Shown here: positions 14,455 through 47,902 of the stretch, piece by piece
Layout of the letters: each line of letters opens with the position of its first letter
Numbering within the stretch: position 1 is the stretch's first letter
Assembly (NCBI GenBank): GCA_965213685.1
Contig: CBDBZY010000005.1
Coordinates: forward strand, 1 to 64,000
DNA from: a bacterium
GTDB lineage: Bacteria; UBA8248
DNA length: 64,000 nt
Direction: 5' to 3'
The notes under the pieces: model-generated
What the model saw: only the letters and a program-made list of their open reading frames with translations
Databases searched by the model: none
Told to the model about the DNA's origin: nothing
Program-made: the position numbers and the translations under genes

Positions 14455-14558
14455 GAAACCTCCTCCTGTGCGAAAATGGGTGGTGAATCGTTCGTGAAAC
14501 GTCTTTTCCGCCAAAACATCCGGCAATCCAAGCGGCCTGAGGCGCACCGGCGGCCCGC

Positions 14559-15293: not shown

Positions 15294-15558
15294 GGAGCCG
15301 CCTCCTCGGGACGCGCGGGCACACCCCGCCGCACAGGCAAAACTGCGCGGGGGTTGTCGCCATTTTCGAGACCAAACCTCGAGACCCGAGATCGAACCTC
15401 GAGACCGAACCGCTTTCTGGTCAGATGGTATTACCATACTAGGCGCGGACGCCCTCCGTGTCAATCCCGAAACCGCGCACCCGTTGCCGCCGCCGTCCCC
15501 CCGGGCGTATACTGCCCTCCGCACAAAGCGCGCTTCCCCTCTTTCGCCCGCCAACGAG

Positions 15559-22272: not shown

Positions 22273-22857
22273 GCCCGGCAATCCGCCCCTCCTCCCCGGG
22301 GACTCCCCGGCGGCGCCGCGCGAGGAGACCTGCTCTCACACGTGGAAGCGCACGTGCATGACGTCGCCGTCGCGCACCACGTAGTCCCTGCCCTCCAGCC
22401 GGAGCGTCCCCACCTCTCGGGTGCGGGCGAGGGAGCCCGCCGCCATGAATCGGAAGACGCGCAAGGAGAAGCCTGGGAGGCGGTCGCCCGCGCTTTGCGC
22501 ACAGGCGAGATTCCCCCCGACCGGGAGGCGGCGTCCGCAGCCCGGATACGAAAACTCAAGGAGGCCTGCCGCCGCCCGAGCCGCTCGGAGCCGGAAGCCG
22601 TCCGCAGCGTCGTCGGCTGCGCGGCTCACCGGAGGGTGCGAGAGAGGATCATCTCCCGAATATCCGCAGCGGGCGGGTGAACCCGGCAATCCGCCCCTCC
22701 TCCCCGGGGACTCCCCGGCGGCGCCGCGCGAGGAGACCTGCGCTCACACGTGGAAGCGCACGTGCATGACGTCGCCGTCACGCACCACGTAGTCCCTGCC
22801 CTCCAGCCGGAGCGTCCCCAACTCTCGGGCGCGGGCGAGGGAGCCCGCCGCCATGAA
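22042..22857. repeat. 408-bp tandem duplication (22042-22449 / 22450-22857) of the nagZ 3' end, intergenic spacer and ychF 3' end
   Basis: Copies align at constant offset 408 with about 17 substitutions; creates pseudo-ORFs 22342-22680 and 22336-22689. Confidence 0.93.
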
Positions 22858-23805
22858 ATCCTCGTAGGAGACCACCTCCGCGCGGATGAAGCCGCGCTCG
22901 AGATCGGAGTGAATCGTCCCTGCCGCGCGCAGGGCGGTGCTGCCCGCGCGAACCGGCCAGGCGCGCACCTCGTCCTCCCCCACGGTGAAGAAGCAGCGCA
23001 GGCCCAGCAGCGCGAAGGACGCCCGCACCACCCTGTCCAGGGCGGAGGCCTCCAGGTCGTAGTCCGCGAGAAACGCCGCCCTGTCCGCATCGGGAAGCCG
23101 GGCGAGCTCCTCCTCGAGCCGCGCGGCGAGTGCGACCGGGGCGGGGTCAGCCTCCAGGCCGGCGAAGGCGGCGGCACCCTCCGCCAGCTGCTCCTCCCCG
23201 ACGTTCGCCACCACCAGGAGGGGCTTGGCGGACAGGAACCCGAACCCCCTGGTCGCGCGCGCCTCCTCCGCCTCCATCTCCAGGGAGAGGACGGGCCGCC
23301 CCTCCTCGAGAGCCGCCCGCAACCTCTCCATCAACGCGGACTCGAGCGCCTCGGCGGGGTCTTTCCGCACCCGCGCCATCTTCTCCAGACGCTCCAGGCG
23401 ACGTTCGACCACCGCGAGGTCGCGCAGGATCAAATCCGCGCGGACGTTTCGCAGATCGCGCACCGGGTCCGTCCGCCCGGCGGGATGCGGCACGCCCGCG
23501 TCCTCGAACGCGCGCACCACGATGATGAGCGCGTCCGCCCCCTCGAGTGCCTGGGGAATCGCCTCGGCACGCCCGGAGGCCGCGTCGCCCACGCCGGGGG
23601 CGTCCACGAAATTGACGGTGGCATGCGTCGTCTTGCGGGGGCGGAAAACGCCGCCCAGCGCGTCCACCCGCGCGTCGGCCACTTGTGCCGCGCCCAGGTT
23701 CGCCCGCGACGCCCCGTATCCGCCCGTCGAGGCGGCTCCTCCCGTGAGGGCGTTGAACAGGGTCGTCTTGCCGCTGGCGGCCAGGCCGATGATTCCGATG
23801 CGCAC
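22744..23805 (-). CDS. ychF: Redox-regulated ATPase YchF
   Basis: GLAASGKTTLFNALT, FFTVGEDEVRAW, IHSDLERGFIRAEV, RLEGRDYVVRDGD. Confidence 0.95.
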   Translation of the reverse strand: MRIGIIGLAASGKTTLFNALTGGAASTGGYGASRANLGAAQVADARVDALGGVFRPRKTTHATVNFVDAPGVGDAASGRAEAIPQALEGADALIIVVRAFEDAGVPHPAGRTDPVRDLRNVRADLILRDLAVVERRLERLEKMARVRKDPAEALESALMERLRAALEEGRPVLSLEMEAEEARATRGFGFLSAKPLLVVANVGEEQLAEGAAAFAGLEADPAPVALAARLEEELARLPDADRAAFLADYDLEASALDRVVRASFALLGLRCFFTVGEDEVRAWPVRAGSTALRAAGTIHSDLERGFIRAEVVSYEDFMAAGSLARARELGTLRLEGRDYVVRDGDVMHVRFHV

Positions 23806-23866
23806 GTCCGGACTCCTCGGAGCACTCCACGAAACGGGCGGGGGCGGGGGCGCCCGCCGCCGCGCG

Positions 23867-24637
23867 TCAACGCGCGTCCGCCTCCCGGGCGAAGGCGCGC
23901 GCCTCCTCCACGAAGCGCGCGAAAAGACGCGCAGCCCCGCCGCTGTCCCCGTAGCCGTAGGCCGACATGGATTCGGGGTGCCACTGCACCCCCACGACGA
24001 ACCGGCGGGAGGGGCATTCGACCGCCTCGACGACGCCGTCGGGCGCCCGGGCGGAGACGCGCACGCCGGCGACCGCCTCGCGCGCGCTCTGGTGGTGGTG
24101 GCTGTTCACCACCGACGCAGCACCGAGAACCTCCCGGAGGAGGGAGGGGCCGACCGCTATCTCGTGGAACGTGTAGGTGCGCGCCTCGCCCTCCGCCGGC
24201 CGGTGGGACAGGGCGCCCTCCACCTGGGAGGGGATGTCCTGGTAGAGCGTCCCGCCCGCCGCGATGTGGATGACCTGCATCCCGCCGCAGATGCCGAGCA
24301 CGGGCATGTCGCGGGACATCGCCCCCCGGCACGCCGCCATCTCCGCCGTCTCGCGCCTGGGGTTTGAGGGGCTGCACTCGCGCCGCCGCTCCTCCCCGTA
24401 GAGGGCCGGGTCGAGGTCGTGCCCGCCGCCGGAGATGATCAGCCCGTCCACGCTCTCGAGGGCGGCCGCACAGGCGGACGCATCCGCCGCCGCCGGCAGC
24501 AGGAGCGGCGTCCCGCCCGCCCGGATCACGCATTCCACGTAGGCGTCCATCAGCACGTGACGGGGGCGCACCTCGGGTGCTTCGGGAAAATTCCGCTTCC
24601 CCACGTCGCAGGTGATTCCGATTCTCGGCCGCCTCAT
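23867..24637 (-). CDS. Gamma-glutamyl-gamma-aminobutyrate hydrolase family (peptidase C26, class I glutamine amidotransferase)
   Basis: PVLGICGGMQ, GGTLYQDI, NSHHHQ, GVQWHPE. Confidence 0.92.
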   Translation of the reverse strand: MRRPRIGITCDVGKRNFPEAPEVRPRHVLMDAYVECVIRAGGTPLLLPAAADASACAAALESVDGLIISGGGHDLDPALYGEERRRECSPSNPRRETAEMAACRGAMSRDMPVLGICGGMQVIHIAAGGTLYQDIPSQVEGALSHRPAEGEARTYTFHEIAVGPSLLREVLGAASVVNSHHHQSAREAVAGVRVSARAPDGVVEAVECPSRRFVVGVQWHPESMSAYGYGDSGGAARLFARFVEEARAFAREADAR

Positions 24638-24907
24638 ATCCGCGCTTTCCCTCCCCCCTCTCCCCCGCCGCCTCGGGGGATGACAAAGATGCGCACAACA
24701 AACCCCCCGCGCACCCTTACCAGGTTCCCGCCGCACGGCACAGGGGACGGGAGAGCCATCATACGGCAAACGGGGGGCGGAATCACGCACCGGGGGGGGG
24801 GGTGCGCGGAGCGGGAGGGAGGGAGGAGGGTGGATTGCCGCACCCGCACGCCTTATAGTCCGGTAGTCCGCATATCGTCCCCCCGGCGGGAGGAGGAGGC
24901 AAACCCC

Positions 24908-25270
24908 TTGCTTCGCATGTATCTCACGCGCCTGGTGCTACCCGTTCTGCTCGTGGCGGCGACCCTGGCTGTGCCCTTCGTCTGGCTGCCCGAGGTCGCC
25001 CCGCCCGCCGGGGAGTCCCCCCCCTCCTCCGTCGCCCGAACGGCCTCCCGCCCGGACGCGCCCCTCTCGCCCGCCCGCGCCACGCCCTTCCAGCGGGCGA
25101 TGACGGTCGGCTTCGCCCTCATCCTGGCGTCGGTGACCGCCGGCGGCTGGATGCTCTACCGCATCACGCGCGCGCAGACGGCGGGCTGGCGGCGGCGCTT
25201 CGCTCCCCCCGGCCGGCGGCGGGGGCGCGCCCTCATTCGGGGGCGAGGGCGGGCGGCAGGGCGTCGATGA
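24908..25270 (+). CDS. Hypothetical two-TM membrane protein
   Basis: Strong GGAGGAGG RBS before TTG; two hydrophobic segments; 3' end overlaps the convergent RM gene. Confidence 0.45.
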   Translation: MLRMYLTRLVLPVLLVAATLAVPFVWLPEVAPPAGESPPSSVARTASRPDAPLSPARATPFQRAMTVGFALILASVTAGGWMLYRITRAQTAGWRRRFAPPGRRRGRALIRGRGRAAGRR

Positions 25271-28200
25271 CGCGGGCGGTCTCGACGCCCAGGTGGACGG
25301 CGCGCCGGAGGGCGGCTATCAGGTCGCGCGGGTCGTCGAACCAGCCGTTCGGGTCGTTCGCGATGCCGCTTTCCTTGTCCTTCCTGAACCGGTAGCGGTC
25401 GACGAGCCATTCCAGCGGGGTGCGCCCGTTGACGGCGTATCGGTGGGCCTCCGCAGGAACGCCGCGCAGGCGGATGTGGTCGTTCACGACGAGGGTCGTC
25501 CGCTCCTCCTTGTCGGCGAAGCGCATCTGCTTCCCGATGCGGTAGTGTGCGGGCCGCGCCTCCCCCCGGCCCGTGAAGACGACCTCCAGCGGATACTCCG
25601 CGCAGGTCTCGTAGCCGAGGTGGAGTGCGGCGAGCGCGCGCCCGGCGTCGGCGAAGGCGCGGAAATCAGGCGCTAAGGGCGCCCTCGGCAACTCCTTGGC
25701 GAGGTCGTTGGCGAAGCGCGCGCGGAAGTCCGGGGCGTGGAGGACGCCGTAGACGTAATCGAACACGTCGTCCTTGCTGATTCGATTGTCCGCATAATGC
25801 GCGCGAAATTTGCGCAGCGCCGCATCCGAGATGTTGTCCACCCGCTCCAGCCGCTTCTCCGTTCCCGGCAGGGCGCCCTGGGCGTCCTCCGGCGCCTGAT
25901 ACCGCCAGCGGGGGAAACACTGGCCAAACGCCATAAAATGCAGGTCCGGCATGGCGTCCACCATGAGAGCGGAGAAGGGCGTTTTGGCGCTTTTGCCGGA
26001 GACGCAGATGGCGCGGTTTGCGCTGCCGGCGTCCGGGAAGATGCTGTCCTGTCGATACTTTCTGTGCACCAGCACGTAGTCGACGTAGCAGTGCTGCTTC
26101 ACGAAGGGGCGATACTGCGTCCTCCACACGCGCCCGGGAGCGTACGCCGCCGCCGTCTTGCCCTGCCGCAGGTTGTTCCTCAGGTTCTCATCCCACCGGA
26201 CGTGGGCGGCGTGGCGGCGGGCGATCTCCTCCGCGTCGCCCCCCGTCCGCTCCAGCTCCCGCAGGGCGGCGGCGTAGTCTCCCACCATCCGGCGGGCGTT
26301 CTCCGCACACGCGGTGCGGGAGAAGTTGTAGATGTAGGCGTCTCTGCCAGTCGCGTACCCAAGGCTGAACAGACGGAAAATCGCGTCGTCCGCCCGGCGC
26401 GCCTTGGCTTTTTTCGTGCCCATCGGGAGGAGCGCCTGATAGGCCTCCGCACGCTGCCCGATCCAGTCGTGATGCCGGTCGGGCGCAATCTCCCGCCAGT
26501 CCTCGATTCCGGCGATCGACCCGGCCTCCCGGAGGATGGCGAGCTTCTCCTCCCGCTTGAGATAGTCCCCAATATTGTGGTATAATGGTGGATTTGCTTG
26601 CTTGCTTGCTTGCTTGCTTAGCGGACGGCGGACGAGGATGGTGATGGCCACCGGAACGCGCACGTCGAACACGTTGCCGCCCTCCCGCTTGGAAACTTCT
26701 CCCTGCGTGTGCAGATTCCCCCGCAGATTCAGGACGTATATCTTGTCGAACTCCTCGGCGAGGCACGCCCGCACCCCGGAATCGCCGTTGCCGTCTATCC
26801 AGGAGCCGTTGGTGACGAAGGCGACGACGCCCCCCTCCTTCTTCCCGATGCGGTCGGACGCCCAGCGGATCGCCATCTTGTAGCTGTCATACAGATACTT
26901 TTTGAGGGTCGCATCCGATCGGGCCGCGTAGGTCTGCCGGATGCGCTCGCTCATCTCCGGGTAGAAGACGTTCTGGTTGTCGTCCGCCGCGCTCTTCTGC
27001 CCCGCCGACCAGGGCGGGTTGCCGACTATCACCTGTATCTGCGCCTGCTGCTGCCGCTCGACGCGCGCGCTGTTGTCCGGCAGCCAGTCCTTCGGGAAGC
27101 CCGTCCGCTCGGTGTGCAGGTTGAAGGTGTCGGTGAGGACGACGCCCCGGAAGGGCTCGTAGGCGGCGCCGGCGCCCATGCGTCCGTGAAAGGCCTCCTC
27201 GATGTGGATCGCCGCAATGTAGTAGGCGAGCAGGACTATCTCGTTGGCGTGCAGCTCGTCGCGGTATTTTCGCGTCAGGTCCTCCTCCCGAATCAGCCCC
27301 GACTGCAGCAGGCGCACCAGGAAGACGCCGGTGCCCGTGAACGGGTCGAGCACGCGGACGCCCGCATCGCTCAGGGAGCGGCCGAACTCCGCGCGCAGGA
27401 CATGATCCGCGCTGTGAAGGAGGAAGTCCACAATCTCGGTCGGCGTGTAGACGATGCCGAGCTTCTCCGCCTCCTTCCTCATGGCGGTGCGGAAGAAATT
27501 CTCGTACAGCTCCATCAGCACGCGCTGGCGCGCCTCGGCGTTGTCCAGCCCCCGGGCGCGGTTGCGCACGCTCTCGTAGAAGGGCTTCATCTCCCGCAGC
27601 TCGCCCTCGAGGCCGAACTCGGCGAAATCCTCCCGCAGATTGTCGAGCGCCTGCGAGACGGGGTTGCCGGCGGCGAAGTCGTAGCCCTCGAACAGCGCCT
27701 CGAACACGGGGCGGGTGAGGATGTGCTGGGCCATCATGTCCACGGCGCTCTGGCGGGTGATGGACTCATTGATGGACTCGCGCAGCGCCTTGTGGAAAGC
27801 GCCGAACCACTCGCACAGAAACTCGTTGCCGGGGGTTTCCAGCAGGCACTCGATGCGGGCGACGAGGCGCGCGAAGATGTCCGCCACGTCCTTCGCCCAG
27901 CTCTCCCAGTACCTGCGGTCGCCGCACCGCTCGACGATCTTCGCGTAGATCGCCCCGGGCGGGACGTCCACCGGCGGGAAGGGCAGGGGCTGCTCGGACT
28001 CGTCGCCGCCAAATTCGGAATCGTCGCCGCCGCCAAATATGATGCGATCGCTCCGATTCTCGTTCAGGTCGATCTGGTTGATCTCGGCGTTGAACCGCTC
28101 ATCGTGCGCGCGCAGGGCGTTGAGCACCTGCCAGACCACCTCGAACTGGGCGTTGCGGTCCAGGGCACGAACCGGGTCCGCACCCGGCGGAATCGCCACC

Positions 28201-30011
28201 GGCAGGATGATGTAGCCGTATTCCTTGCCCTCCGCCTTGCGCATCGCGCGGCCCACCGCCTGCACGATGTCCACGTGCGACTTGCGCTTCTCCATGAAGA
28301 GCACGGCGTCCAGGGCGGGCACGTCCACCCCCTCGGAGAGGCAGCGCGCGTTCGAGAGGATGCGGCAGGCGCCCTCCCCCTCATCCTCCTCCCGGAGCCA
28401 GTCGATCCGGCCCTTGCGCTGGAGGGCGTTGTTCTTCCCGTCCACGTGTTCCGTCTCGCACCGCAGCGCGCCCGCCCGCTCCTCGGCGGGCAGCCGTTCG
28501 ACCGCCTGTGCGACGACGTCGCTCCAGTGGTCATTCAGCCGCTGTGACCCCTTGATCGTGTTCGTGAACGCGATGGCGCGCCTGAGCGGGCCGACCGGCC
28601 CGGCCTTCCCGCCCGCACCGCTTTCGGGGTTCTGGAGTGCGCGCCAGCAGCCGACGATCTTCGTCTGGTCGGTGATGGTGATTTCGCTCCTCCCCGTCTT
28701 CCCGAGTCCCTGGAGCGCCTCGCCCGCCCCCTCCTCGGAGAGGGTGAGCACCACGACCTTGAAGTCGGAGAGCAGCTTCTGCTCGACCGCGCGGGAGAAG
28801 GGCAGGCGGTGGAACTCCGGCCCGTAGGTATTCTCATCGTCCATCGAGAACACCTCGACGTCGCGGCTTTTCGCCCTGGCCTTCGCACTCTCGGTGTAGA
28901 GGCGGGGGGTGGCCGTCATGTAGAGGCGTTTTTCCGCGCGTATCCGCTCCTCGTCGTGCACCAGCACGAAGGGGGAGGTCTTCTCCTCCCCGGGACGCTC
29001 GACGCCCGTCGTGCGGTGGGCCTCGTCGCAGAGGATGAGGTCGAACGCCGGCGCCCCTCCCTCTTGGGCCGCCGCCACCAGGGGGAGGGAGTGGTAGGTG
29101 CAGAAGACGGCCGTCAGGGCGTCCTGCGGCGTCTCCCGCAGGCTCGCGGCTATCCTCTCCGGGTCGGTGGTGGGAGGAATCTCCAGCTCCTCCAGCAGGG
29201 CGTCCTCCACCACGTCGCCTTTTTTCGTCGTCTTTTTTCCCGCACTCGCGTCCGAGCAGACGCCGACGTAGCGGTGCGGGAGGCGCCTCTGCTCCGCCCA
29301 CTCCCGCATCGACTGGGCGAACAGCGCGATGGACGGCACCAGGTAGAGCACCCGCCCGCCGCGGCCGGCGACCTCCTCGGCGATGCGCAGGGCGGTGAAG
29401 GTCTTGCCCGTGCCGCACGCCATGATGAGCTTGCCGCGGTCGCCCTTCTGAAAGCCCGCCAGCACGCCGTCGAGCGCCTCCCGCTGATGCGGACGCAGGC
29501 AGAACCGCTCGCCCCGGCGGCGCAAATCCTCCGGCTCGTCGCGCACCAGGTCGGGCCAGTCGAAGCCGTAGGCCGCGAGGTCGCCGAAGCGCAGCACCTG
29601 GCATTCCGGCTTGAGGCCAAGGATGGCGTCCGTCGCGTTCGGCCCCCAGTCGTCGCCTGTGTCCACCACGATGCGGGCGGTGAACGGGTCGCGGCTGGAG
29701 GCTGCGATGAACGAATCGAGATGCGGCTTCGCGATGCGCGTGCCCGGGGCGTAGCACTTGCACTGCACCGCGCAGTAGCCGTCCCCCGCGCGCTCCTGGG
29801 CCACGAGGTCGATCCCGGTGTCCTTCCCGCTGAAGCCGTGATGCCGCGCCGCCCAATCGCTCCAGCGCCAGACGTCCGAGAAGCGGTCGGAATAGACAGG
29901 ATCTTCCCGGAAATACTCCCTCATCACCCGCTCGAAGGTGCGCCCCTTCTCGACCTCGGTGTCCGAGATGGCGCGTATCTGCTCCAGCATGGTCTGAAAA
30001 TCGACGCCCAA
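25233..30011 (-). CDS. Type ISP restriction-modification enzyme (Mrr-like nuclease, SF2 helicase, N6-adenine methyltransferase, C-terminal specificity domain)
   Basis: GIDLV..VQCK nuclease; MACGTGKT, DEAH, TATP, QAVGRAMR helicase; LGIVYTP, LDPFTGTG, GNPPW MTase; LlaGI-like C-terminus. Confidence 0.93.
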   Translation of the reverse strand: MGVDFQTMLEQIRAISDTEVEKGRTFERVMREYFREDPVYSDRFSDVWRWSDWAARHHGFSGKDTGIDLVAQERAGDGYCAVQCKCYAPGTRIAKPHLDSFIAASSRDPFTARIVVDTGDDWGPNATDAILGLKPECQVLRFGDLAAYGFDWPDLVRDEPEDLRRRGERFCLRPHQREALDGVLAGFQKGDRGKLIMACGTGKTFTALRIAEEVAGRGGRVLYLVPSIALFAQSMREWAEQRRLPHRYVGVCSDASAGKKTTKKGDVVEDALLEELEIPPTTDPERIAASLRETPQDALTAVFCTYHSLPLVAAAQEGGAPAFDLILCDEAHRTTGVERPGEEKTSPFVLVHDEERIRAEKRLYMTATPRLYTESAKARAKSRDVEVFSMDDENTYGPEFHRLPFSRAVEQKLLSDFKVVVLTLSEEGAGEALQGLGKTGRSEITITDQTKIVGCWRALQNPESGAGGKAGPVGPLRRAIAFTNTIKGSQRLNDHWSDVVAQAVERLPAEERAGALRCETEHVDGKNNALQRKGRIDWLREEDEGEGACRILSNARCLSEGVDVPALDAVLFMEKRKSHVDIVQAVGRAMRKAEGKEYGYIILPVAIPPGADPVRALDRNAQFEVVWQVLNALRAHDERFNAEINQIDLNENRSDRIIFGGGDDSEFGGDESEQPLPFPPVDVPPGAIYAKIVERCGDRRYWESWAKDVADIFARLVARIECLLETPGNEFLCEWFGAFHKALRESINESITRQSAVDMMAQHILTRPVFEALFEGYDFAAGNPVSQALDNLREDFAEFGLEGELREMKPFYESVRNRARGLDNAEARQRVLMELYENFFRTAMRKEAEKLGIVYTPTEIVDFLLHSADHVLRAEFGRSLSDAGVRVLDPFTGTGVFLVRLLQSGLIREEDLTRKYRDELHANEIVLLAYYIAAIHIEEAFHGRMGAGAAYEPFRGVVLTDTFNLHTERTGFPKDWLPDNSARVERQQQAQIQVIVGNPPWSAGQKSAADDNQNVFYPEMSERIRQTYAARSDATLKKYLYDSYKMAIRWASDRIGKKEGGVVAFVTNGSWIDGNGDSGVRACLAEEFDKIYVLNLRGNLHTQGEVSKREGGNVFDVRVPVAITILVRRPLSKQASKQANPPLYHNIGDYLKREEKLAILREAGSIAGIEDWREIAPDRHHDWIGQRAEAYQALLPMGTKKAKARRADDAIFRLFSLGYATGRDAYIYNFSRTACAENARRMVGDYAAALRELERTGGDAEEIARRHAAHVRWDENLRNNLRQGKTAAAYAPGRVWRTQYRPFVKQHCYVDYVLVHRKYRQDSIFPDAGSANRAICVSGKSAKTPFSALMVDAMPDLHFMAFGQCFPRWRYQAPEDAQGALPGTEKRLERVDNISDAALRKFRAHYADNRISKDDVFDYVYGVLHAPDFRARFANDLAKELPRAPLAPDFRAFADAGRALAALHLGYETCAEYPLEVVFTGRGEARPAHYRIGKQMRFADKEERTTLVVNDHIRLRGVPAEAHRYAVNGRTPLEWLVDRYRFRKDKESGIANDPNGWFDDPRDLIAALRRAVHLGVETARVIDALPPALAPE
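26594..26617 (-). repeat. (GCAA)6 simple sequence repeat inside the type ISP gene
   Basis: TTGC x6 on + strand; encodes SKQASKQA, currently in frame. Confidence 0.9.
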
Positions 30012-30402
30012 CGTCTCCCCTCCTCCTCCTTGCCGGGATGCGGAGCGGGAGCAACCCCCTCCCCCTCCGCCACGGGGCGGCGGCTTGCTCGCTCCCTGCG
30101 CACAAGATGAAAATGTGCCGCAAAGTTATGGCAAATCAGGAGGCGAATGCAAACGAACGGGGGGAGACGGGCCGCCGGAGGGGCCGCTGAGGGAGGGGGA
30201 GGAACGAAACCGCCCGCCCGACGCTGCGCCGATGGGACTGAGAGACGTCCTCTAGCGTAGTATTCTGCCGAATCTGCCTCAAGGTATGTCATATTATACG
30301 TATAACGATGATCTCATTTCGCCGATGAGGCTACCACCGGATGCGCGGACGAACGGTTGCGGATAAAAAAATTACCGTTAGCGATAAAGAAGTAAGATCG
30401 GT

Positions 30403-31755
30403 ATGTTGGCCTGCCAGACTCCATGTGCCAACTACGCCATCTTAAGAACAGTGCCCATGCGTTCCGATCGTGCGCAACAAAAACGAGATGTAAGGAACGA
30501 GTCCCACCAGCCATCTAATCAAAAAAAGCAACCACCGGACGCACATGCAATCCCCGAGGTTAGTGCCCCCGATTTGAGTTGGCGCCTCTCTGATCATCAT
30601 GGTGCCGAAGCTGCAGATGAAATGGTTGCTGACCCTTGGGATGTCCACATTGCGGACAAAAATAATCTACTTGCCGAAACAGGTGAGCCATCATCAAACC
30701 ATGATGTTGCTCCTGTCTCGGCGAAAGTGGGTCTAAAGCTCTTCAACGCATTAAATGAATGGCCACCAGAAGACGATGCGGACGCTGTCTCAACGGAAAT
30801 ACCACTCAAACTCTTCAACGCATTAGACGCATGGCCGCAGGAGGACGATGCCGAGGCTATCGACGACAATAGCGAGCAATTCCACCCGGCAAACAACGAT
30901 AGATTGCCGGATGCTTCGACCAATCCCGAGCCGCTTCTCGGAGTGTTCAGCCCGGCAAATGATATTTTCGAGCTGGACCGGTCCAATGAAGGAGTTTTTG
31001 ATGAAGCAGTCGACGGAGGATTCGAAGGGTTCGTGGCCGATGAGCACGAAGACCTGGCCGACGACTCCTACATCTCTGAATTCGACGAGAACGCCCAACA
31101 ACCACCCTGGGAAATCGCCCCAAAGGAAGAAGAGCGAAATTTACGTCGTGCTCGCACCAAGGCGGCGAAAGTTGTAAATCTGCTTGATTTCAGAAGCCCT
31201 CGCGAGCGAGAGAGGATCATAGCGTATCTGACGGAATTGTTTCAGCAGATGACACATCCGGCGACCTTCCGAGCAATCGAGAGAGCGTCAGAAGGGATAG
31301 GGTTCGACACTTTGGAAGCGATGGTGGAATTGCGCCGATGGTGGTTGAGATTTGACGAACTACGCACGCCTAGGCGCAGCCTAACATTTAGATGGGATAC
31401 GGCGCGCCTCGTGTGTCTCGCCAGAAAGGATTATCCCCCAGAGGCCATGATCGATGACGATTGGCTCGACGAATGGTTGCGATTGCCATATCCGGATCCC
31501 AACTACTCTAGTTTTTCCTCCTACATTGAATACAAGGTTCTTTACCGTGAAGCCGAACTTCTGGGGCAGGGGCTAAGACATTGGGAGCACGGCAATGATT
31601 ATGTAGAAATGGGCGATGACTACAGCTGGTATCGGCGCCTCCCTGGCTATGGTGAGACAATGCGAGATATACGAGGCCATTTCCGCATCATCACGCCCTA
31701 TGATGACTGGACCAGGGACACCACCATCCATTTGTCCCGAGAGGATGAGAAATGA
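30403..31755 (+). CDS. Hypothetical protein, acidic low-complexity N-terminal half and Trp-rich helical C-terminal domain
   Basis: 450-codon ORF in a lower-GC segment; ATGA overlap with the downstream helicase; exact start uncertain. Confidence 0.75.
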   Translation: MLACQTPCANYAILRTVPMRSDRAQQKRDVRNESHQPSNQKKQPPDAHAIPEVSAPDLSWRLSDHHGAEAADEMVADPWDVHIADKNNLLAETGEPSSNHDVAPVSAKVGLKLFNALNEWPPEDDADAVSTEIPLKLFNALDAWPQEDDAEAIDDNSEQFHPANNDRLPDASTNPEPLLGVFSPANDIFELDRSNEGVFDEAVDGGFEGFVADEHEDLADDSYISEFDENAQQPPWEIAPKEEERNLRRARTKAAKVVNLLDFRSPRERERIIAYLTELFQQMTHPATFRAIERASEGIGFDTLEAMVELRRWWLRFDELRTPRRSLTFRWDTARLVCLARKDYPPEAMIDDDWLDEWLRLPYPDPNYSSFSSYIEYKVLYREAELLGQGLRHWEHGNDYVEMGDDYSWYRRLPGYGETMRDIRGHFRIITPYDDWTRDTTIHLSREDEK

Positions 31756-34586
31756 TGCCCATTGAGGTTCTGCTCCCGATCAAAGGATGCTGGGTGAGGC
31801 GTCGCGGCGGCCTCAAGGGACCGCTGGGACGGGTAGAAGAAGTGAACAGCAACGGAGCAACATCAAATCAGGTAAAGGTAATTTGGGGACAAGGAGAAAG
31901 TGAATGGCTGAATGTCGATGAACTGGAGGCTGGATTTCAGCCCAAATGGGCTGTGCAAGACGTTCCTCTTTCCGCAACGCGCAAGCCTTTGGGACAAGGG
32001 CGCGTCGTAGGCAAACGTACATTGGGCGGCCGCCACCAAATTCTTGTGCAACTCGACGATACTGGCCGCTCGGTCTGGTTGCCCTACGAAAACCTGCGGC
32101 GCATTAAAGATGTGCGCATGCGCTATGCTCGCGCGGAGACAGGAGTCGAAAACCATGCCGAAAGGCTCCGCCTTCGCCTGCTTGCCCATGCGCTCGAGAA
32201 CTGGAACCACCTCACCGGCTCGCTAGACCGGCTTGACGTCGACCCCCTCCCGCACCAAATCCAGCTTGTGCATCGGATAATAAGTTCCGGCAACTATAAT
32301 TGGCTAATCGCCGATGACGTAGGGTTGGGCAAGACCATCGAAGTCGGACTGTTGCTCGCCGCCCTCAAACGCAAGGGACAGGCGCGGCGCGTATTGATCG
32401 TTTCTCCCTCCGGTCTTGTGCGCCAATGGCAGGACGAACTCCTTTACAAATTCGACCAGCAGGCTCGAATCTATGGGCGCGACTTCACCATCAACAAGCC
32501 GGAACACTGGAAACTATACGACTACGTCATCGTCTCAATCGATCTCGCCAAGCGGGAAAACCACATGCAAGCGTTTCGGGAGGCGGGAGGATGGGACGTC
32601 ATTGTGTTTGACGAGGGACACAAGCTCACGCGATATGCCAGCGGAGAGCGCGCGGACCGATATAAGCTGGCGGAAATGCTAAGGCCGATGGCGGACGCAT
32701 TTCTCCTCCTCAGCGGCACTCCCCATCAAGGTTATGCGGATAGGTTCATATCGCTCCTTGAACTCGTGCGGCCTGATCTCAGGCCGAGAATACAAACTCT
32801 CGAAGCTAACCCAGAAGTTGTGGGCGACATGATTTTGCGAAATCGAAAGAGCGAGGTCACCGACGCCGACGGGGAGTTCATATTCAAAGGGCAGCAGATA
32901 CACAGGATTGCCATAGAGCCATCCGAACAGACTCGCGCATTCCAGCGTGGCTTGAACAAGTACCTCAGGCACGGCTACCGGGCTGGAGAGCAGACAGGCG
33001 CGGTTGGGCGTGCCATCGGTTTCGTCATGACAACCTACAGAAAACTTTCCTCCTCAAGTATCGCAGCGATCGAACGCGGTCTTAGACTTCGCATGGAGCG
33101 CCTGTCACATAGCGTGAACGCGCAAGACGAAACCGACATCATGGATGATCTGACGTTGGAGGATCTCTCCGAAGGCGGGGACGACCAAGACGACCTTGAA
33201 TCGCACTCGACGAAAGCGACGGAATTCTTCGCCCACGAAAAGGAGATGCTAGAAAACTTGCTTGCAGACGCGAAGGCCATCCGAAGCACCGACGAAAAGC
33301 TGCGCATATTTATCGACCAAGTCGTGGCCCCTCTCGTGGACGAAGGGAAAAACCTTCTCGTATTCACTGAATATCGGGCAACGCAATCCTACATTAAGGA
33401 AGCGCTACAAACTCGATTTCCCGATGACGGTGAAGTCGTCTTGATAAACGGTTCGATGACGCTGGATGAGAAGATGAAAGCCATTGAGGCATTTAGCGAA
33501 TCGGCGCGATTCATGGTTTCGACAGAAGCCGGCGGCGAGGGGATCAACCTTCATGAGTCATGTCATGTGATGGTGAACTATGACCTGCCGTGGAACCCGG
33601 CGAGATTGGTACAGCGTATTGGAAGACTATACCGATACGGGCAAAATGAAACCGTCGTCGTATTCAACCTTCACGCCCGTGACAGCTTCGACAATAAGGC
33701 CATTGACTTGATGATGCAGCGCGTCAGTCAGATCGCACAGGACATGAAACCTGTGGGCACAGAGTACAATGACCGACTTTATGCCGAAATTCTTGGCGAA
33801 GTGCTGGACAATCTCGACTTCGCATCCATCCTTCAATCAGCGACCGAGATGCAAATGGGTTATACGTCTAAGCAAATTGATGAAGCGCTGGCCCGCGCAG
33901 AACAAGCAAAGCGCTTGCAGGATGAGATATTTACACACGTGTCTGGTTACGATCCAAATGCTTTGGGCGGCACCATCGGCTTCACCATGCAGCACGTCGA
34001 TGTTTTTATCCGCGGCATGCTGCCCATTGTTGCAATCAAACTTGAAACAACTTTATACGAGGGGGCGGTCAAGGAAATTCGACTGCCCGAAACGCTTCGA
34101 GGCCAATTCCCGGAGTTTGGGCAACGAACCGTGGTGAGGGTTACGACAGATCGCCGCCTTGCACAGCGGCTACACGATGTTGTTTTGCTCGATTTCGAGA
34201 CACCGTTTTTCCGGTATCTGATTGAGCAAGCGAAATCACGGGGTTTCGATGGGATCTACGCATCGGCTCTATCGACCGCTGATATTCAAGGCATCCTTTT
34301 GGCCTTCAAGCTTCGCTGGCAGAATGACCAGGGCGAGACTTTGACAGAGGAATTTGTTCCGTTGTTCGCTGAGGCGAATGGAATGATCACAAAATTCCCG
34401 CAATTCCTTGCGCAGTGGCTGGTATCGCCGATCCAACCCGCTCCGGCACCCGCCCCCCAAACAGCGGATCGCCTGAAAATGTATGACCGATTAGTGGCGA
34501 AGGCTGAGCAAATCCTTGCCGCCGAAAGTACGCGCTTCAAGCATCCAAACGGACTTGTAGAACTCGCCGCAGCGGATTACAGATAA
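31752..34586 (+). CDS. SNF2/RapA-family SF2 helicase
   Basis: PHQ, LIADDVGLGKT, DEGH, LSGTP, VFTEY, STEAGGEGINL, YDLPWNP..LVQRIGRLYRYGQ. Confidence 0.93.
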   Translation: MMPIEVLLPIKGCWVRRRGGLKGPLGRVEEVNSNGATSNQVKVIWGQGESEWLNVDELEAGFQPKWAVQDVPLSATRKPLGQGRVVGKRTLGGRHQILVQLDDTGRSVWLPYENLRRIKDVRMRYARAETGVENHAERLRLRLLAHALENWNHLTGSLDRLDVDPLPHQIQLVHRIISSGNYNWLIADDVGLGKTIEVGLLLAALKRKGQARRVLIVSPSGLVRQWQDELLYKFDQQARIYGRDFTINKPEHWKLYDYVIVSIDLAKRENHMQAFREAGGWDVIVFDEGHKLTRYASGERADRYKLAEMLRPMADAFLLLSGTPHQGYADRFISLLELVRPDLRPRIQTLEANPEVVGDMILRNRKSEVTDADGEFIFKGQQIHRIAIEPSEQTRAFQRGLNKYLRHGYRAGEQTGAVGRAIGFVMTTYRKLSSSSIAAIERGLRLRMERLSHSVNAQDETDIMDDLTLEDLSEGGDDQDDLESHSTKATEFFAHEKEMLENLLADAKAIRSTDEKLRIFIDQVVAPLVDEGKNLLVFTEYRATQSYIKEALQTRFPDDGEVVLINGSMTLDEKMKAIEAFSESARFMVSTEAGGEGINLHESCHVMVNYDLPWNPARLVQRIGRLYRYGQNETVVVFNLHARDSFDNKAIDLMMQRVSQIAQDMKPVGTEYNDRLYAEILGEVLDNLDFASILQSATEMQMGYTSKQIDEALARAEQAKRLQDEIFTHVSGYDPNALGGTIGFTMQHVDVFIRGMLPIVAIKLETTLYEGAVKEIRLPETLRGQFPEFGQRTVVRVTTDRRLAQRLHDVVLLDFETPFFRYLIEQAKSRGFDGIYASALSTADIQGILLAFKLRWQNDQGETLTEEFVPLFAEANGMITKFPQFLAQWLVSPIQPAPAPAPQTADRLKMYDRLVAKAEQILAAESTRFKHPNGLVELAAADYR

Positions 34587-34689
34587 CTCTCGTTCATTTT
34601 CGCAACAATACGGCTCGCAGCTGGGGCATACTCTCTTCACGCCTCCTCACCAACGTCTCCCCTCCTCCTTACCGTCATGCCCGGCGGGG

Positions 34690-35340: not shown

Positions 35341-35653
35341 GGGTTGACCTGCCTTTGCGATTCCAGGACGCTCAAACAAGGTAAGCCGAACATAAACAAC
35401 CACTTATAAAAAATTATGCCCCTGGCGCGGCTCCGGTGTGCGAACATTATCAGGGGCGCGCGCGGGTGTCAAGATGAGCGCGGAGCGGAAGAATCCGGGC
35501 ACACGCGCGCGCGGGCGCCATCCGCTCTCCTCTCTTCCGGGGGAAGACCCGCAGCCCTGTGCGCGGGGGAAATCCGCAACCCGCCCCTCCGACTTGACCA
35601 TCCGAAACCCGCAATCTTATATTCATCCCCTGTACGTATATGGGGGATGCGGC

Positions 35654-37102
35654 ATGACTTCTCCAGGCGCTCCGGATTCTCGCCCCGGGCTGTTGCGGCG
35701 ATTGCCCTCCGTGGACGAGATTGTCACCCGCCTCAGGAACGAGGGGGCGAACGGCTCGTCAGACGCCGCATTGTCCGACGCAGCCAGAGAGGCGATCGGG
35801 GGGAAGAGGCGGTTCCTGATGGAGCGCATCCACCGGGAAGAGTCCCCGAGAGGCGCGGAAAACGCCTCGCCGTCCGAGCGGGCGCTTCGGGATATGGTCC
35901 TCCGCGACGCGAAGCGGATTCTCTCCTCCCGCAAACGAAACGGGTTGAAAAAAGTCATCAACGCGACGGGAATCGTCCTACACACCAACCTGGGCCGGGC
36001 GCCGTTGAGCGACGCCGCGGCCGCGGCGCTGCAGGACGTCGCGCAAGGGTATTCCAACCTGGAGTTCGACCTCCGTCTCGGGCGCAGGGGAAAGAGGGGG
36101 GCCGACGTCGAATCCCTCCTCCGCCAGCTGACGGGCGCGGAATCCGCATTGGTCGTCAACAACAACGCCGCGGCCGTGATGTTCGCCATTCACGCCATGG
36201 CCCATTCCGCCGAGGTGATCGTCTCGCGGGGGGAGTTGATAGAAATCGGCGGCTCTTTTCGCATCCCCGACATCATGCGGCAGAGCGGCGCGACGCTGGT
36301 GGAAACCGGGACGACGAACAAAACGAGAATATCCGATTACCGGGACGCCATCACCGAACGCACCGCCCTGCTGCTCAAGGCGCATACGAGCAATTACAGG
36401 ATCGTCGGCTTCACCGAAGAGGTGTCTCGCGACGCGCTCTCCAGGCTCGGGGCGGAAAAGAACGTCCCCACCCTGGAAGACCTGGGAAGCGGCTCCCTCC
36501 TTCATGTGGACGGCCTCCCGCAGGAGCCCACCGTGCGGGAATCCATACGGGCCGGAATCGACGTCGTCACCTTCTCCGGAGACAAGCTGCTGGGCGGCCC
36601 GCAGGCCGGCGTCGTCGTCGGCAAGAGCGCATGGATAGAGAAGATGAAACGACACCCGCTCATGCGCATCCTGCGGCCGGACAAGCTCACGCTCGCCGCC
36701 CTGGAGGCGACGCTGCGGACGCATCTGGACCCGGACGCCGCCCGCGCAGCCATCCCGACCATCCGGATGTTGTCCGCCAGCCAGGAGGAATTGCGGGCGC
36801 GGGCGGAATCCCTGAGGGGCCTCATGGGAGAGCGGGCCTGTTCCGCCCTGGGCGCGAGCGTCGAAAAAACTTCCGGCATGGTGGGCGGCGGCGCCATGCC
36901 TTTGGCGAAGCTGGACAGCTGCGCCGTTACCCTCTCCCCTCAAAATTCCTCCGCGGATTCACTGGAGACCAAACTGCGCCACGCCGCCCCGCCCGTTGTG
37001 GCGCGGGTTCACGGAGACAAGGTGATACTCGACCTGCGATGCGTCACAGGGGAGGAAATCCGGCAGCTCGCCGCCCTTCTCCGAGAACTCGCAACAAGGT
37101 AG
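35654..37102 (+). CDS. selA: L-seryl-tRNA(Sec) selenium transferase
   Basis: VINATGIVLHTNLGRAPL, VNNNAAA, SRGELIEIGGSFRIP, EDLGSG, FSGDKLLGGPQAG. Confidence 0.97.
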   Translation: MTSPGAPDSRPGLLRRLPSVDEIVTRLRNEGANGSSDAALSDAAREAIGGKRRFLMERIHREESPRGAENASPSERALRDMVLRDAKRILSSRKRNGLKKVINATGIVLHTNLGRAPLSDAAAAALQDVAQGYSNLEFDLRLGRRGKRGADVESLLRQLTGAESALVVNNNAAAVMFAIHAMAHSAEVIVSRGELIEIGGSFRIPDIMRQSGATLVETGTTNKTRISDYRDAITERTALLLKAHTSNYRIVGFTEEVSRDALSRLGAEKNVPTLEDLGSGSLLHVDGLPQEPTVRESIRAGIDVVTFSGDKLLGGPQAGVVVGKSAWIEKMKRHPLMRILRPDKLTLAALEATLRTHLDPDAARAAIPTIRMLSASQEELRARAESLRGLMGERACSALGASVEKTSGMVGGGAMPLAKLDSCAVTLSPQNSSADSLETKLRHAAPPVVARVHGDKVILDLRCVTGEEIRQLAALLRELATR

Positions 37103-37181
37103 ATTTTCACCATCCTCGCACAGAGAAAACGGAATCCTCCAGCCCGAACATAGACCGAACATAGAGAGGTCAACTTATCCG

Positions 37182-38030: not shown

Positions 38031-39944
38031 ATGACGAAGCACGTCGTCATCGGAACCGCCGGCCACATCGATCACGGGAAAACCTCCCTCGTCAAAGCGT
38101 TGACCGGCACAGACACCGATCGCCTGAAAGAAGAAAAAGAGCGGGGGATCACCATCGAACTCGGATTCGCCGAGCTCGTTCTGGGGAGCATCCACGCGGG
38201 CATCGTGGACGTTCCGGGCCACGAGCGGTTCGTCAAGAACATGCTGGCCGGCGTCGGCGGCATCGATTTGGTGATGCTGATCATTGCGGCGGATGAAGGC
38301 GTGATGCCGCAAACCAGAGAACATTTGGCCATCTGCCGACTTCTCGGGATACGAACGGGCCTCGTCGTGCTGACCAAAACGGACCTGGTCGAGCCGGAAT
38401 GGATGGAGCTCGTCACGGACGACGTGCGGGACTTCGTGAAAGACACCTTTCTGGAGAACAAGCCCATCGTGCCGGTTTCGGCCCATGCCGGAGATGGCCT
38501 GGAGAGCCTCCGAAACGCCCTGGCAGAAATCGCGAACGCGACGCCCGCGAAAAGCGAAACGGGTATTTTCCGGCTACCGATTGACCGCGTGTTCACGATG
38601 CGGGGCTTCGGCGTCGTGATAACGGGAACCCTGTTCAGCGGGAGCGTGGGACTCGGGGAGCAGGTGGAAATCTTTCCCAGCGGCCATCAGGCGCGCGTTC
38701 GCGGCCTGCAGGCACACGGGACGCCCGTGAAAAAATCCACCGCCGGCCTCCGGACCGCGCTCAACCTGCAAGGCGTGGAGCACGCCGAGGTGTCCAGGGG
38801 GGACATCGTCGGACGTCGCGGAGAACTGAAAACAACGTATATGCTGGACGTTCACCTGGAACATCTCCCCGACGCGACGCGCCCCCTGAAAACGCGCGAC
38901 CGCATCCGCTTCCATGCCGGCACCGCGGAAATCATGGGGAGGGTGTCTCTCATCGGGCGGGACGCACTGGAGCCGGGGGACCGCGCTTTCGGGCAAATAC
39001 GGCTCGAGGCACCCGTCGTCGTCCTTCCCAGGGACCGGTTCGTCATCCGGCGCTACTCGCCGATCGTCACGATCGGCGGCGGCGAAATTCTGGACGTCAC
39101 GCCCCGCAAGCACAGACGATTGCGCAGTTCATCCATGGATCGCCTGCGGTCGCTGCACCAGGGAGACGAGACGGAGAGGCTGCTCATATTCCTGCGGGAC
39201 GCGCGATGGAACGGGATGGACCTCGCCGACCTCACGGGTCGTCTCACGCTCCAGCCCGGAGACATCCAAAAAACCATGCAGGCGCTGTCCGCGCGCGGGC
39301 GGGTGCAGATTATCGACCAGGCCAGCCTCTTCGTCATGACGAGGGAGCATTTCGACGCCACCCAGAAAAGCGTTCTCTCCTCCCTCGAGGAGTATCACGC
39401 CGGCAACCCCCTGCGCCCGGGCGCTCCCAGAGAGGAGGTGCGCGGGAAGGCGGGCGGCCTGCATGAAAAAATCTTTGACGCCGCTCTCCAGCATTTGGGC
39501 GCGGCGAAGAAAATCGTGGCGGACGGCGCCACCCTGCGGCTCGCCTCGCACCACGTAGAAATTGGCGAGGAACTCAGAGCGGTGAAGACCAGACTGGAGG
39601 CGGCCTTCCGAAACGCCCATTTTCAGCCCCCATCCACAGAGGAGGCGTTCGCGCAAGGGGGCGGGGAGGGCGATGCGAACCAAGACGCTCTGCAAATTCT
39701 GATAGACGAGGGCGTTTTATTGCGGCTGAAGGAGAACATCGTCTATCACCGAGACGCCTTGACGGAGGCGGAAAACCTCCTGAAAGGGCACCTGTCGCGC
39801 CACCGTGAAATTACGGCGGCGGAATTTCGGGACATATTGGGGATCACGCGGAAACACGCCATACCCCTGCTGGAGTATTTCGACACCGCGCGCATCACGT
39901 TGCGGGTCGGGGACAAAAGGGTGCTCCGCCCGGACGCGAGATGA
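38031..39944 (+). CDS. selB: Selenocysteine-specific translation elongation factor
   Basis: [28 protein letters not shown]; C-terminal [12 protein letters not shown] winged helix. Confidence 0.97.
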
Positions 39945-41134
39945 CGTCTCCTGATGAGGAATCCGACATGGCTCTGGACGATGACAAAATCCGACGACTG
40001 CGCTCCGACGTTCCGGCGCTGCAAAATCAAATCTACGTAAATTGGGGAGGAGGGGGGCCGTCCTCCAAATCGACCCTGCACGAGATGGAGGCGTTCACGA
40101 AACGGGAGCTGGCGCTCGGCTCGTTCCATCCGCAAATCCGGGACGAAACCCGCGCGGCACTGGAGCGGACCAGGGAGCGCTGCGCCAAACTCATCGGCGC
40201 CGACCCCTCGGAGGTCGCGCTCGTGAACAATACGACGGCCGGCATCAACATCGCGGCGGCCGGCCTGGAGTGGAGAGCGGGAGACGAGGTTCTTCTCTCG
40301 GATTTGGAGCATCCCGGCGGCTACTTGCCCTGGCTGGTATGGCGGGAGAGAAGCGGCATCCGGGTGCGACTGTTCCGAACCGGCGCAAACGATCAGGAGC
40401 TCCTGCGCAATCTGGAAAGCGCCGTCACCCCGAAAACCAGGGCGGTTTGCGTGAGCCACGTCGCGTGGCTCACGGGCAGGAGACTGCCCCTGGAGGCGAT
40501 CAGCCGGATTTGCGTCCGCTCAGGCGCGCTCCTCGTGGTGGACGGCGCCCAATCCGTCGGCCACATACCCGTCCACATGCGGGAAACCGGCGCGGACGTC
40601 TACACCATATCGGGACAGAAATGGCTGATGGGCCCGCAAGGCACGGGCGCCGTGTATGTGCGGCGCGGCGCGGGCAAAGACGTTCGCCTCTCCTCCGCGG
40701 GCTATCGCTCCGCCCAAAAGAAGAGCCTCGAGACCCTCTCCTTCACGCCGCAGACGAGCGCCATGCGCTATGAGATCGGCACCCTGCATACGCCCGCTTT
40801 CATCGGGCTGGGGGCCGCGGCCGCGCACTTCCAAACAACGGGGCCCGCATCCATCGCCAACAGGGCGCTCGCGCTGTCGAATCGCCTGCTGGACCGGATG
40901 CGCGCCATGAAAAACGTCGACGTCATCAGCCCGCCGGGGCCGGCCCAGTCCGGTCTGGTGTCTTTCCGCATTCCGGGCACCGCCTCTCAAAAGTTGGTGG
41001 ACGCGCTCGTGCGGGAGCACAAAATCATCCTCCGGGCGGTGGAGACCGCACCCCCCGCCATCCGGGCTTCCATCCATTATCTGAATACGGAACAGGAAAT
41101 AGACCAGATCGCGGACGCGATCTCCGCCTTATAG
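39941..41134 (+). CDS. Class V PLP aminotransferase (cysteine/cystine lyase or EgtE-like)
   Basis: NTTAG, EHP, DGAQSVG, SGQKWLMGPQGTG, IRASIHYLN; may start at 39968. Confidence 0.88.
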   Translation: MTSPDEESDMALDDDKIRRLRSDVPALQNQIYVNWGGGGPSSKSTLHEMEAFTKRELALGSFHPQIRDETRAALERTRERCAKLIGADPSEVALVNNTTAGINIAAAGLEWRAGDEVLLSDLEHPGGYLPWLVWRERSGIRVRLFRTGANDQELLRNLESAVTPKTRAVCVSHVAWLTGRRLPLEAISRICVRSGALLVVDGAQSVGHIPVHMRETGADVYTISGQKWLMGPQGTGAVYVRRGAGKDVRLSSAGYRSAQKKSLETLSFTPQTSAMRYEIGTLHTPAFIGLGAAAAHFQTTGPASIANRALALSNRLLDRMRAMKNVDVISPPGPAQSGLVSFRIPGTASQKLVDALVREHKIILRAVETAPPAIRASIHYLNTEQEIDQIADAISAL

Positions 41135-47017: not shown

Positions 47018-47066
47018 CCCCCCCCCCCCCCCCCGCGCTCGGGGGGGGGGGGGGGGGGGGGGGGGG
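47018..47066. repeat. C17-GCGCTC-G26 homopolymer pair
   Basis: Directly visible; self-complementary. Confidence 0.85.
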
Positions 47067-47797: not shown

Positions 47798-47902
47798 GTA
47801 AATCGCGCTCGCCGCCCGCTCCACCTCACTCGGGGTAATCTCCACCCAGTAGTGCGCGCGCCTTGCCGAGGGTCATCCCGACGCGGTAAGAGGTGTACAA
47901 AC

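Follow-up and report, generated by a model that had tools for sequence, protein, structure and literature searches.

RapA, with tandem Tudor domains, and the BrxHII and BR helicases, with a single Tudor domain, are Snf2-family motors that have in common a degenerate restriction endonuclease-like (REase-like) domain and a RapA-specific alpha+beta domain, according to the available part of PMC12839542. The same text places two members of this clade, BrxHII and the HmaA protein of BR systems, in defence, and the available parts of three further papers do so for HmaA (PMC11232893), ArmA of ARMADA (PMC12458937) and ietH (PMC13069673). In RapA, the N-terminal domain is described as autoinhibiting the ATPase until RNA polymerase binds (PMC8501970, likewise available in part). 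Clade members with a reported role, RapA excepted, all belong to anti-phage systems, and RapA/BrxHII-like motors recur in BREX, DISARM, ARMADA, Hma and ietHAS. The element described here is a pair of overlapping genes in a 64,000-nucleotide stretch of DNA from a bacterium of the lineage UBA8248 (assembly GCA_965213685.1, contig CBDBZY010000005.1, positions 1 to 64,000 of the forward strand), called the window below. The first gene encodes an acidic protein (the partner), the second a RapA-like Snf2-family ATPase (the helicase). The two genes form a horizontally moving cassette, and we tentatively assign them to defence against mobile genetic elements (MGEs). No paper on this pairing was found in the literature, supplementary tables, which possibly list such orphan helicases, and collections of metagenome and viral contigs lying outside the search; the database names of the proteins are only "DEAD/DEAH box helicase", "SNF2-related protein" and "hypothetical protein".

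Gene organisation

Two plus-strand open reading frames (ORFs), 30403–31755 (450 residues) and 31752–34586 (944 residues), share an ATGA overlap, in which the TGA stop of the partner overlaps the ATG of the helicase (junction sequence AAATGATG). The longest partner ORF starts at 30403; the ATG at 30457, giving a protein of 432 residues, is the likelier start, because the database copy (P0003, 432 residues) and the aligned homologues begin there. Measured in 500-nucleotide windows, the GC content is 0.51–0.58 across 30000–34500, against 0.61–0.76 over 22000–30000 and 0.58–0.68 on the right side. The GC content at third codon positions (GC3) is 0.53 for the partner and 0.61 for the helicase, against 0.75–0.90 in 11 flanking genes. 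To the left, a complete gene for a type ISP restriction-modification enzyme (25233–30011; GC 0.61–0.71) runs on the minus strand, divergent from the pair; in it Pfam recognises Mrr_cat_2, ResIII, ISP_coupler, N6_Mtase and Type_ISP_C domains and PADLOC a REase_MTase. ORF calls, GC, GC3 and Pfam thus agree with the original prediction, made from the sequence alone, of ATGA-overlapping ORFs in an AT-rich segment divergent from a type ISP gene.

Structure of the helicase

The 944-residue helicase (31752–34586, plus strand) is a member of the Snf2/Swi2 ATPases. Both Pfam lobes score above their cut-offs (SNF2-rel_dom, residues 169–343, 64.0 bits against 24.9; Helicase_C, residues 521–630, 73.4 bits against 23.5) and the Walker A and DExH motifs are intact: GLGKT (residues 191–195, 32322–32336) and D287, E288 and H290 of the DEGH box (32610–32621) are invariant in 42 homologues, over which the mean column identity is 70%. 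In the AlphaFold2 model, which has a mean predicted local distance difference test score (pLDDT) of 71, the amino-terminal region (residues 12–117, 31785–32102) forms two tandem Tudor-like beta-barrels (residues 14–60 and 67–117), with block-mean pLDDT values of 69–92. This is followed by the Snf2 ATPase core (residues 160–645, 32229–33686) and by a conserved helical linker (residues about 646–745, 33687–33986), which is poorly modelled (pLDDT below 50). The protein ends in two alpha+beta domains (residues 746–944, 33987–34583), with block-mean pLDDT values mostly of 79–93 and one block at 63. Residues 646–944 match no nuclease family even at E<=10, and inspection of the conserved columns, the only means used here, reveals no PD-(D/E)xK triad in the carboxy-terminal part. 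Intact helicase motifs and the lack of a recognisable carboxy-terminal nuclease had both been claimed in the original prediction, and both claims hold.

The model shows similarity to RapA over its full length. In a Foldseek comparison with the Protein Data Bank (PDB), E. coli RapA takes the first five places, led by 6bog_A with an E-value of 3.6e-33 over 1081 columns; alignments to other Snf2 proteins cover the core only (about 650 columns), at E 1e-18 or worse. The best PDB match by sequence is again RapA (E 3.9e-28). This full-length likeness and the RapA-type pair of carboxy-terminal alpha+beta domains go beyond what had been predicted, as do the repeat boundaries described below. Among the PADLOC models, used without curated cut-offs, the best matches are BrxHI|BrxHII (PDLC02500, 3e-102), DrmD (1e-86), BrxHII (PDLC02504, 1.7e-80), HmaA (1e-77) and ZorD (2e-28). 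The NCBIfam cut-offs of DrmD (315.2 against 610 bits), DpdE (193 against 500), RapA (PRK04914, 160.4 against 576) and ZorD (64.6 against 1500) are all missed.

The fold suggests a first alternative to defence, a RapA-type accessory transcription factor, in which the Tudor-like amino-terminus would bind RNA polymerase and recycle or remove stalled polymerase, the acidic partner would act as a regulator and the role would be a cellular one. The five RapA structures at the head of the fold comparison argue for it, including as they do the tandem amino-terminal barrels that are absent from BrxHII, and so do the high conservation of the helicase and the autoinhibition described for RapA (PMC8501970, available in part). 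Against it, the RapA model is reached only at 160 of 576 bits, and by sequence the helicase is nearer to DrmD and BrxHII. Weighed together with the genomic evidence presented below, a role of this type is unlikely.

Structure of the partner protein

The 432-residue partner (30457–31755, plus strand) is unmatched in Pfam, PADLOC, NCBIfam and PHROGs. Its first 205 residues (30457–31071) are acidic, with 47 Asp and Glu against 14 Lys and Arg and a net charge of -33, and contain a conserved W..DH..DPW motif, with the DPW at residue 59; residues 206–432 contain 9 tryptophans. An acidic half followed by a Trp-rich carboxy-terminal domain is what had been predicted. The mean pLDDT of the partner model is 56. 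Residues 1–195 are mostly predicted to be disordered, while residues 224–377 are modelled as entirely helical, with block-mean pLDDT values mostly of 71–94 and one block at 63. The region of residues 207–379 (31075–31593), made up of an acidic motif and the Trp-rich all-helical domain, is the part also present in the plasmid-borne relatives. In the acidic motif, D-x-D-x-A-x-Q-x-P-W, A213 and Q215 are invariant and P217 and W218 are present in at least 90% of the sequences. The invariant positions of the domain itself are mostly hydrophobic residues or tryptophans; W313, W336 and W340 alone are conserved at 90% or more across 146 relatives, and on inspection the domain shows no catalytic signature.

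The original prediction left the carboxy-terminal domain unassigned, and structural and profile searches likewise gave no match: for the partner fold, Foldseek E-values are no better than 0.94 (PDB) and 0.07 (BFVD), the best PDB profile match has an E-value of 0.089, and the ESM Atlas returned nothing usable for the whole partner or for residues 200–385. A word-indexed search found 22 family members, and a profile search against clusters at 50% identity gave 275 representative clusters at E<=1e-3, 194 of them at E<=1e-10. Pfam leaves 93 of 95 relatives unmatched, the exceptions being one amino-terminal SAM (sterile alpha motif) domain and one sub-threshold DUF2868 match; the SAM domain occupies residues 2–56 of P0191, a relative of 477 residues. 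A search for longer or fused forms of the domain found none, which is weak evidence. The partner is therefore a member of an undescribed protein family, with no Pfam model or known fold.

Acidity of the amino-terminal region is a family trait, with a median of 24.5% Asp and Glu against 6% Lys and Arg in the 84 relatives in which this region is at least 80 residues long, while its sequence is hypervariable. Of 167 family proteins, 91 have a DPW, in an acidic context and with its median position at 51. A polyanionic arm of this kind suggests a second alternative, namely that the pair is cargo of a mobile element, serving counter-defence or maintenance: the arm would mimic DNA to block restriction or BREX-type enzymes and the motor would aid incoming DNA. 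The net charge of the amino-terminal half and its retention across the family are consistent with this, and PHROGs adds a weak match (E 2.2e-6) to DarB-like antirestriction proteins. However, the disordered arm shows hypervariability, not the fixed shape of a mimic, and tblastn finds no match to the partner in 50,697 phage and 72,556 plasmid records; for the helicase, the phage collection yields two partial matches, at 26% identity. This explanation, to which we return with the plasmid-borne relatives and the cassette boundaries, is improbable.

Conserved pairing and genomic contexts

In a scan of species-representative genomes, six related loci (L001 to L006) were confirmed among 250 pattern matches; since the scan relied on two peptide patterns, six is a lower bound. 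The loci fall in unrelated phyla, and in all six the helicase gene lies directly downstream of the partner gene, so that the homologues of the two proteins co-occur. Identity to the window proteins is 69–84% for the helicase and 33–48% for the partner. With the window included, the ATGA overlap is kept in five of seven pairs; L006 has an 11-nucleotide spacer, and L001 has a gap of 111 nucleotides, because the tail of the partner is cut short there. The lost tail can be read in another frame (L001, 11044–11200) and is present in the longer relatives P0005, P0006 and P0009; the early end reflects either a frameshift or a mistake in the assembly. Distances between partners co-vary with those between the corresponding helicases (Mantel r 0.94 over 11 pairs, five of them assigned solely because both proteins came from equal-sized contigs; none of 5000 permutations reached as high a value). 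The best 120 helicase matches are all 58–84% identical, and this close family exceeds the set of partners first found.

L002 to L006 have common flanking genes, so we count them as one insertion event. The window, L001 and this group have only the pair in common. In L001 a HEPN_AbiU2 gene and an IS630-type transposase accompany the pair in an islet of low GC, which has housekeeping genes on either side. In L002 to L006 it is surrounded by metabolic genes; in L003, where composition was profiled, the pair has a GC content of 0.47–0.50, against about 0.60. The pair is accordingly poorer in GC than its flanks in the window and in both L001 and L003, and this foreign composition in all three chromosomal contexts examined argues against the RapA-type role, as does the finding of only six loci, a lower bound, in unrelated phyla of the species-representative genomes. 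The metabolic flanks of L002 to L006 and the maintenance of the pair at one syntenic site across five genomes speak for such a role.

In a tree of the helicases, those with a partner form their own clade. The nearest outgroup helicases, which are 41–44% identical, are located on Nitrosococcus and Deinococcus plasmids, and each follows a gene whose product has a carboxy-terminus homologous to the partner domain. The Nitrosococcus protein aligns to the partner domain with an hhalign probability of 95% (E 2.7e-8) and to its Deinococcus counterpart by BLASTP at 2e-19. Direct alignment of the partner family with the 1315-residue Deinococcus protein by hhalign gave a probability of 3.8% and no link, so the homology of the Deinococcus protein to the partner stands only via the Nitrosococcus protein. 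The amino-terminal regions of the plasmid versions are wholly different: that of the Nitrosococcus protein (524 residues) is acidic and contains DPW, that of the Deinococcus protein has coiled-coil and Pro-rich stretches. The Deinococcus versions (L008, 3994–7941; L009, 4039–7941) are about 1300 residues long, the coiled-coil-like and Pro-rich region preceding the helical domain, and show that the variable arm is not always acidic.

The Nitrosococcus plasmid pNHAL01 carries annotated Dsr1 and restriction endonuclease genes near the pair, together with PADLOC matches to PD-DExK, HNH and TIR-like effectors; one remote plasmid version thus lies inside a dense defence island. On the Deinococcus plasmids the surroundings are transposases, replication initiator genes, a NERD-domain gene and TnpB, and PADLOC had no match to the four neighbours that were scanned. 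The Deinococcus actinosclerus plasmid (L009) also encodes, immediately downstream of the helicase (11817–15506, minus strand), a protein of 1229 residues with an eCIS core domain and an Ntox15 toxin domain. Sister pairs located on plasmids, with transposases and replication initiator genes as neighbours, are in keeping with mobile-element cargo, and plasmid-borne sister forms also argue against the RapA-type role. Recognised defence genes lie within 10 kb in three of the five independent contexts, namely the window, L001 and pNHAL01.

More distantly, a helicase 30% identical to that of the window is found on Halorubrum pHLAC01 (L010, 2403–10206), after a protein of 1432 residues with a TaqI-like specificity domain. 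This is the methyltransferase-plus-helicase arrangement of known systems; a TATA-box-binding protein gene and a DUF262 gene follow the Halorubrum helicase. Such a layout in a relative, and the fact that the best PADLOC matches are BrxHI|BrxHII, DrmD and HmaA, might suggest that the pair was orphaned when a larger known system (type 3 BREX, class 1 DISARM, ARMADA or Hma/BR) lost its methyltransferase and ATPase genes. Against this, the two-gene layout is present in six of six loci and is mostly translationally coupled, the partnered helicases form a clade of their own, and no methyltransferase, DUF499, BrxC, PglZ, DrmA or DrmB gene was found up to 10 kb away in the three loci searched (the window, L001 and L003), the type ISP enzyme's own methyltransferase domain aside. 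With the repeats described next, which delimit just two genes, an orphan remnant is very unlikely indeed.

Cassette boundaries

A perfect direct repeat of 20 nucleotides (blastn-short E-value 5e-6 within the 64-kb window) flanks the pair. Read on the minus strand, the left copy (30008–30027) covers the type ISP gene's ribosome-binding site and its TTG start (30011). The right copy (34650–34669), located just past the stop (34690) of a small minus-strand gene for an OB-fold protein, represents a relic of this start region. Similarity continues beyond the repeat, with 79% identity over the 28 nucleotides that begin 14 nucleotides into it (30022–30049 against 34661–34688). The positions of the two copies, at the type ISP start and past the OB-fold gene stop, indicate that 4.6 kb were inserted between two minus-strand genes, and the content of the repeat indicates that the type ISP start region was duplicated on insertion. 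That the segment 30028–34649 is a horizontally moving two-gene cassette is well supported. Between the repeats nothing recombinase-like is found, and the cassette ends lack terminal inverted repeats.

A second case is found in L006, where a perfect 30-nucleotide repeat (9896–9925 and 14166–14195; E 1.7e-13) brackets the pair; the GH32 gene downstream has its start codon and first nine codons within this repeat. From the relic start a leader of 29 codons is read, the stop of which overlaps the partner ATG. In L003 the same repeat (9936–9952 and 14174–14190) has decayed to an 11-nucleotide core, and in L001 no bracketing repeat was detected. Both known insertions, that in the window and that in L006, therefore duplicate the translation start region of a host gene, and neither is accompanied by a recombinase. 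They are independent of each other, and the two together hint at an undescribed mode of movement for small cassettes.

These boundaries bear on two of the alternatives. Repeat-bracketed insertions in the window and L006 argue against the RapA-type role. For mobile-element cargo, it is a supporting point that the insertion coincides exactly with a restriction gene's start; against it, the chromosomal copies have no other mobile-element gene inside the repeats, and the duplication preserved the type ISP start region rather than destroying it.

Proposed function

Our preferred explanation, held tentatively and at somewhat less than an even chance, is that the pair is an anti-phage or anti-plasmid module, with the partner as sensor or regulator and the Snf2 motor as effector. 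It is favoured on account of the helicase clade, the fast-evolving non-enzymatic partner, the horizontal movement as a two-gene cassette and the frequency of defence neighbours. The partner identity of 33–48% against 69–84% for the helicase, with acidity conserved over a varying sequence, is an arms-race signature. The original prediction had proposed a horizontally acquired, stand-alone anti-MGE system. Foreign composition, the direct repeat, adjacency in all six loci, the restriction of what the contexts have in common to the pair and the Mantel correlation give the stand-alone mobile unit good support, and its place outside known systems is also sustained, no curated cut-off being reached and no system partner genes being present; the anti-MGE function is argued from the helicase clade, the fast-evolving partner and the defence genes in three of five contexts.

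The helicase would be an active double-stranded-DNA translocase of Snf2 type, with the full RapA/BrxHII architecture and no nuclease signature. The partner would be an adaptor, its Trp-rich helical domain probably anchoring it to the helicase and its hypervariable, acidic, disordered arm bearing the short conserved acidic-Trp motifs. By analogy, this arm may sense or bait a component of the invader, or keep the motor inactive by DNA mimicry; a possible DNA mimic or sensor was also what the original prediction had seen in the acidic part. Once released, the Snf2 motor may itself be the effector, stripping or blocking protein complexes on DNA much as RapA removes RNA polymerase.

Several points weigh against a defence module. 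From the features described we infer the binding of the two proteins to each other, the defence role and the mechanism. The pair encodes no nuclease, toxin or modification enzyme, which makes the effector step conjecture. PADLOC gave nothing for the partner, and the helicase reaches no curated family cut-off (315 of 610 bits for DrmD and 160 of 576 for RapA). Its conservation, at a mean column identity of 70%, is unusual for an immune protein. In L002 to L006 the pair sits among metabolic genes, and five independent contexts, three of them with defence genes, are too few for a claim of enrichment.

A more speculative form of the idea, with only a slender chance of being right, would make the pair a nuclease-free immune or genome-guarding module resembling a minimal chromatin remodeller. 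A RapA-like motor would be combined with an acidic, disordered partner akin to a histone chaperone, the DPW and D-x-D-x-A-x-Q-x-P-W motifs capturing basic DNA-coating proteins, of the invader or of the nucleoid, and the motor evicting them. Such a module would spread onto host gene starts without a recombinase, duplicating 20–30 nucleotides. The probability left after the defence module and the three alternatives falls to explanations outside these. If the pair protects cells, the contribution of the motor and that of an acidic, disordered sensor arm could be studied in isolation.

Surroundings of the cassette in the window

The 5' non-coding part of the cassette (30028–30456, plus strand) is GC-rich to about 30240 and AT-rich after that. 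This upstream sequence shows no conservation between distant loci, and the cassette contains no Rfam family and no tRNA. Scans for promoters (three found against 3.1 expected) and terminators (eight against 6.7) gave results no better than shuffled sequence. On the right flank, the OB-fold gene is followed by SelA (35438–37102, GC3 0.80, Pfam 5e-150), an alpha/beta hydrolase, SelB and a class-V aminotransferase, which identify this flank as a selenocysteine operon. An ORF at 35416–37164 (582 residues, GC3 0.52) was rejected as a wrong-frame shadow of SelA. The aminotransferase beside SelB (39941–41134) matches the PADLOC models SspA and DndA at about 1e-34, which most likely reflects generic cysteine-desulfurase homology and no phosphorothioation system.

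A type II CRISPR-Cas locus is located 16 kb from the cassette. Its array consists of three blocks (47902–48403, 48809–49638 and 49774–50193) with a repeat of about 36 nucleotides and a period of 66 nucleotides; the blocks are parted by non-repeat stretches, and a small ORF (48986–49465) lies within the array. Beside it are Cas1 (50700–51665) and Cas9 (51547–54576), both on the minus strand. A run of 26 consecutive G residues occupies 47041–47066.

Comparison with known systems

The window neighbours between 17455 and 54576 were scanned with Pfam (22 ORFs) and PADLOC (17 ORFs), and no partner genes of DISARM, Zorya, BREX or Hma were found among them; for the first three, this had been anticipated in the original prediction. 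The helicase resembles RapA in its tandem Tudor-like barrels, Snf2 core and two carboxy-terminal alpha+beta domains, as seen in the AlphaFold2 model and with Foldseek. RapA is a chromosomal housekeeping gene that is not known to have a coupled partner gene; the helicase gene described here has a foreign composition and in every case comes after the gene for the acidic partner.

BrxHII has the layout Tudor, Snf2, degenerate REase-like domain and alpha+beta domain, and differs from the present helicase in having a single Tudor domain instead of two (PMC12839542, in its available part). It is the best PADLOC profile match, at 3e-102, with HmaA at 1e-77. The type 3 BREX operon genes (BrxC, the PglXI methyltransferase, PglZ, BrxA and BrxF) are absent nearby by Pfam and PADLOC, and the only methyltransferase near the pair in the window is the type ISP enzyme's own domain. 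In contrast to HmaA and the BR systems, no DUF499 ATPase or N6-methyltransferase gene adjoins the pair, and the active carboxy-terminal PD-(D/E)xK nuclease described for HmaA in the available text of PMC11232893 is unmatched in the helicase. DrmD is the best NCBIfam match (1.2e-93), but at 315 bits against a cut-off of 610, and there is no gene for a DrmA/YprA helicase, DUF1998, PLD or PglX-like methyltransferase. The flanks of L001 and L003 likewise yielded none of drmA, drmB, drmC and drmMI.

ZorD of type I Zorya is, like the present helicase, a Snf2-family ATPase, and one recruited into a small defence operon; PADLOC ZorD models match the helicase at 2e-28. ZorD differs in score (64.6 against 1500 bits), there are no matches to ZorA, ZorB or ZorC, and an Mrr-like nuclease is missing here. 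Recruitment of such an ATPase into a small defence operon applies to ietH as well (PMC13069673, in part), although no ietA/ietS protease-ATPase pair lies beside the helicase. ArmA of ARMADA is described, in the accessible portion of PMC12458937, as a BrxHII/RapA-like helicase. With the motor clade already known, what is new here is the undescribed partner family, of about 275 clusters at 50% identity, and the minimal layout. The pair may be the simplest setting of this motor, one ATPase with one non-enzymatic adaptor and neither methyltransferase nor nuclease.

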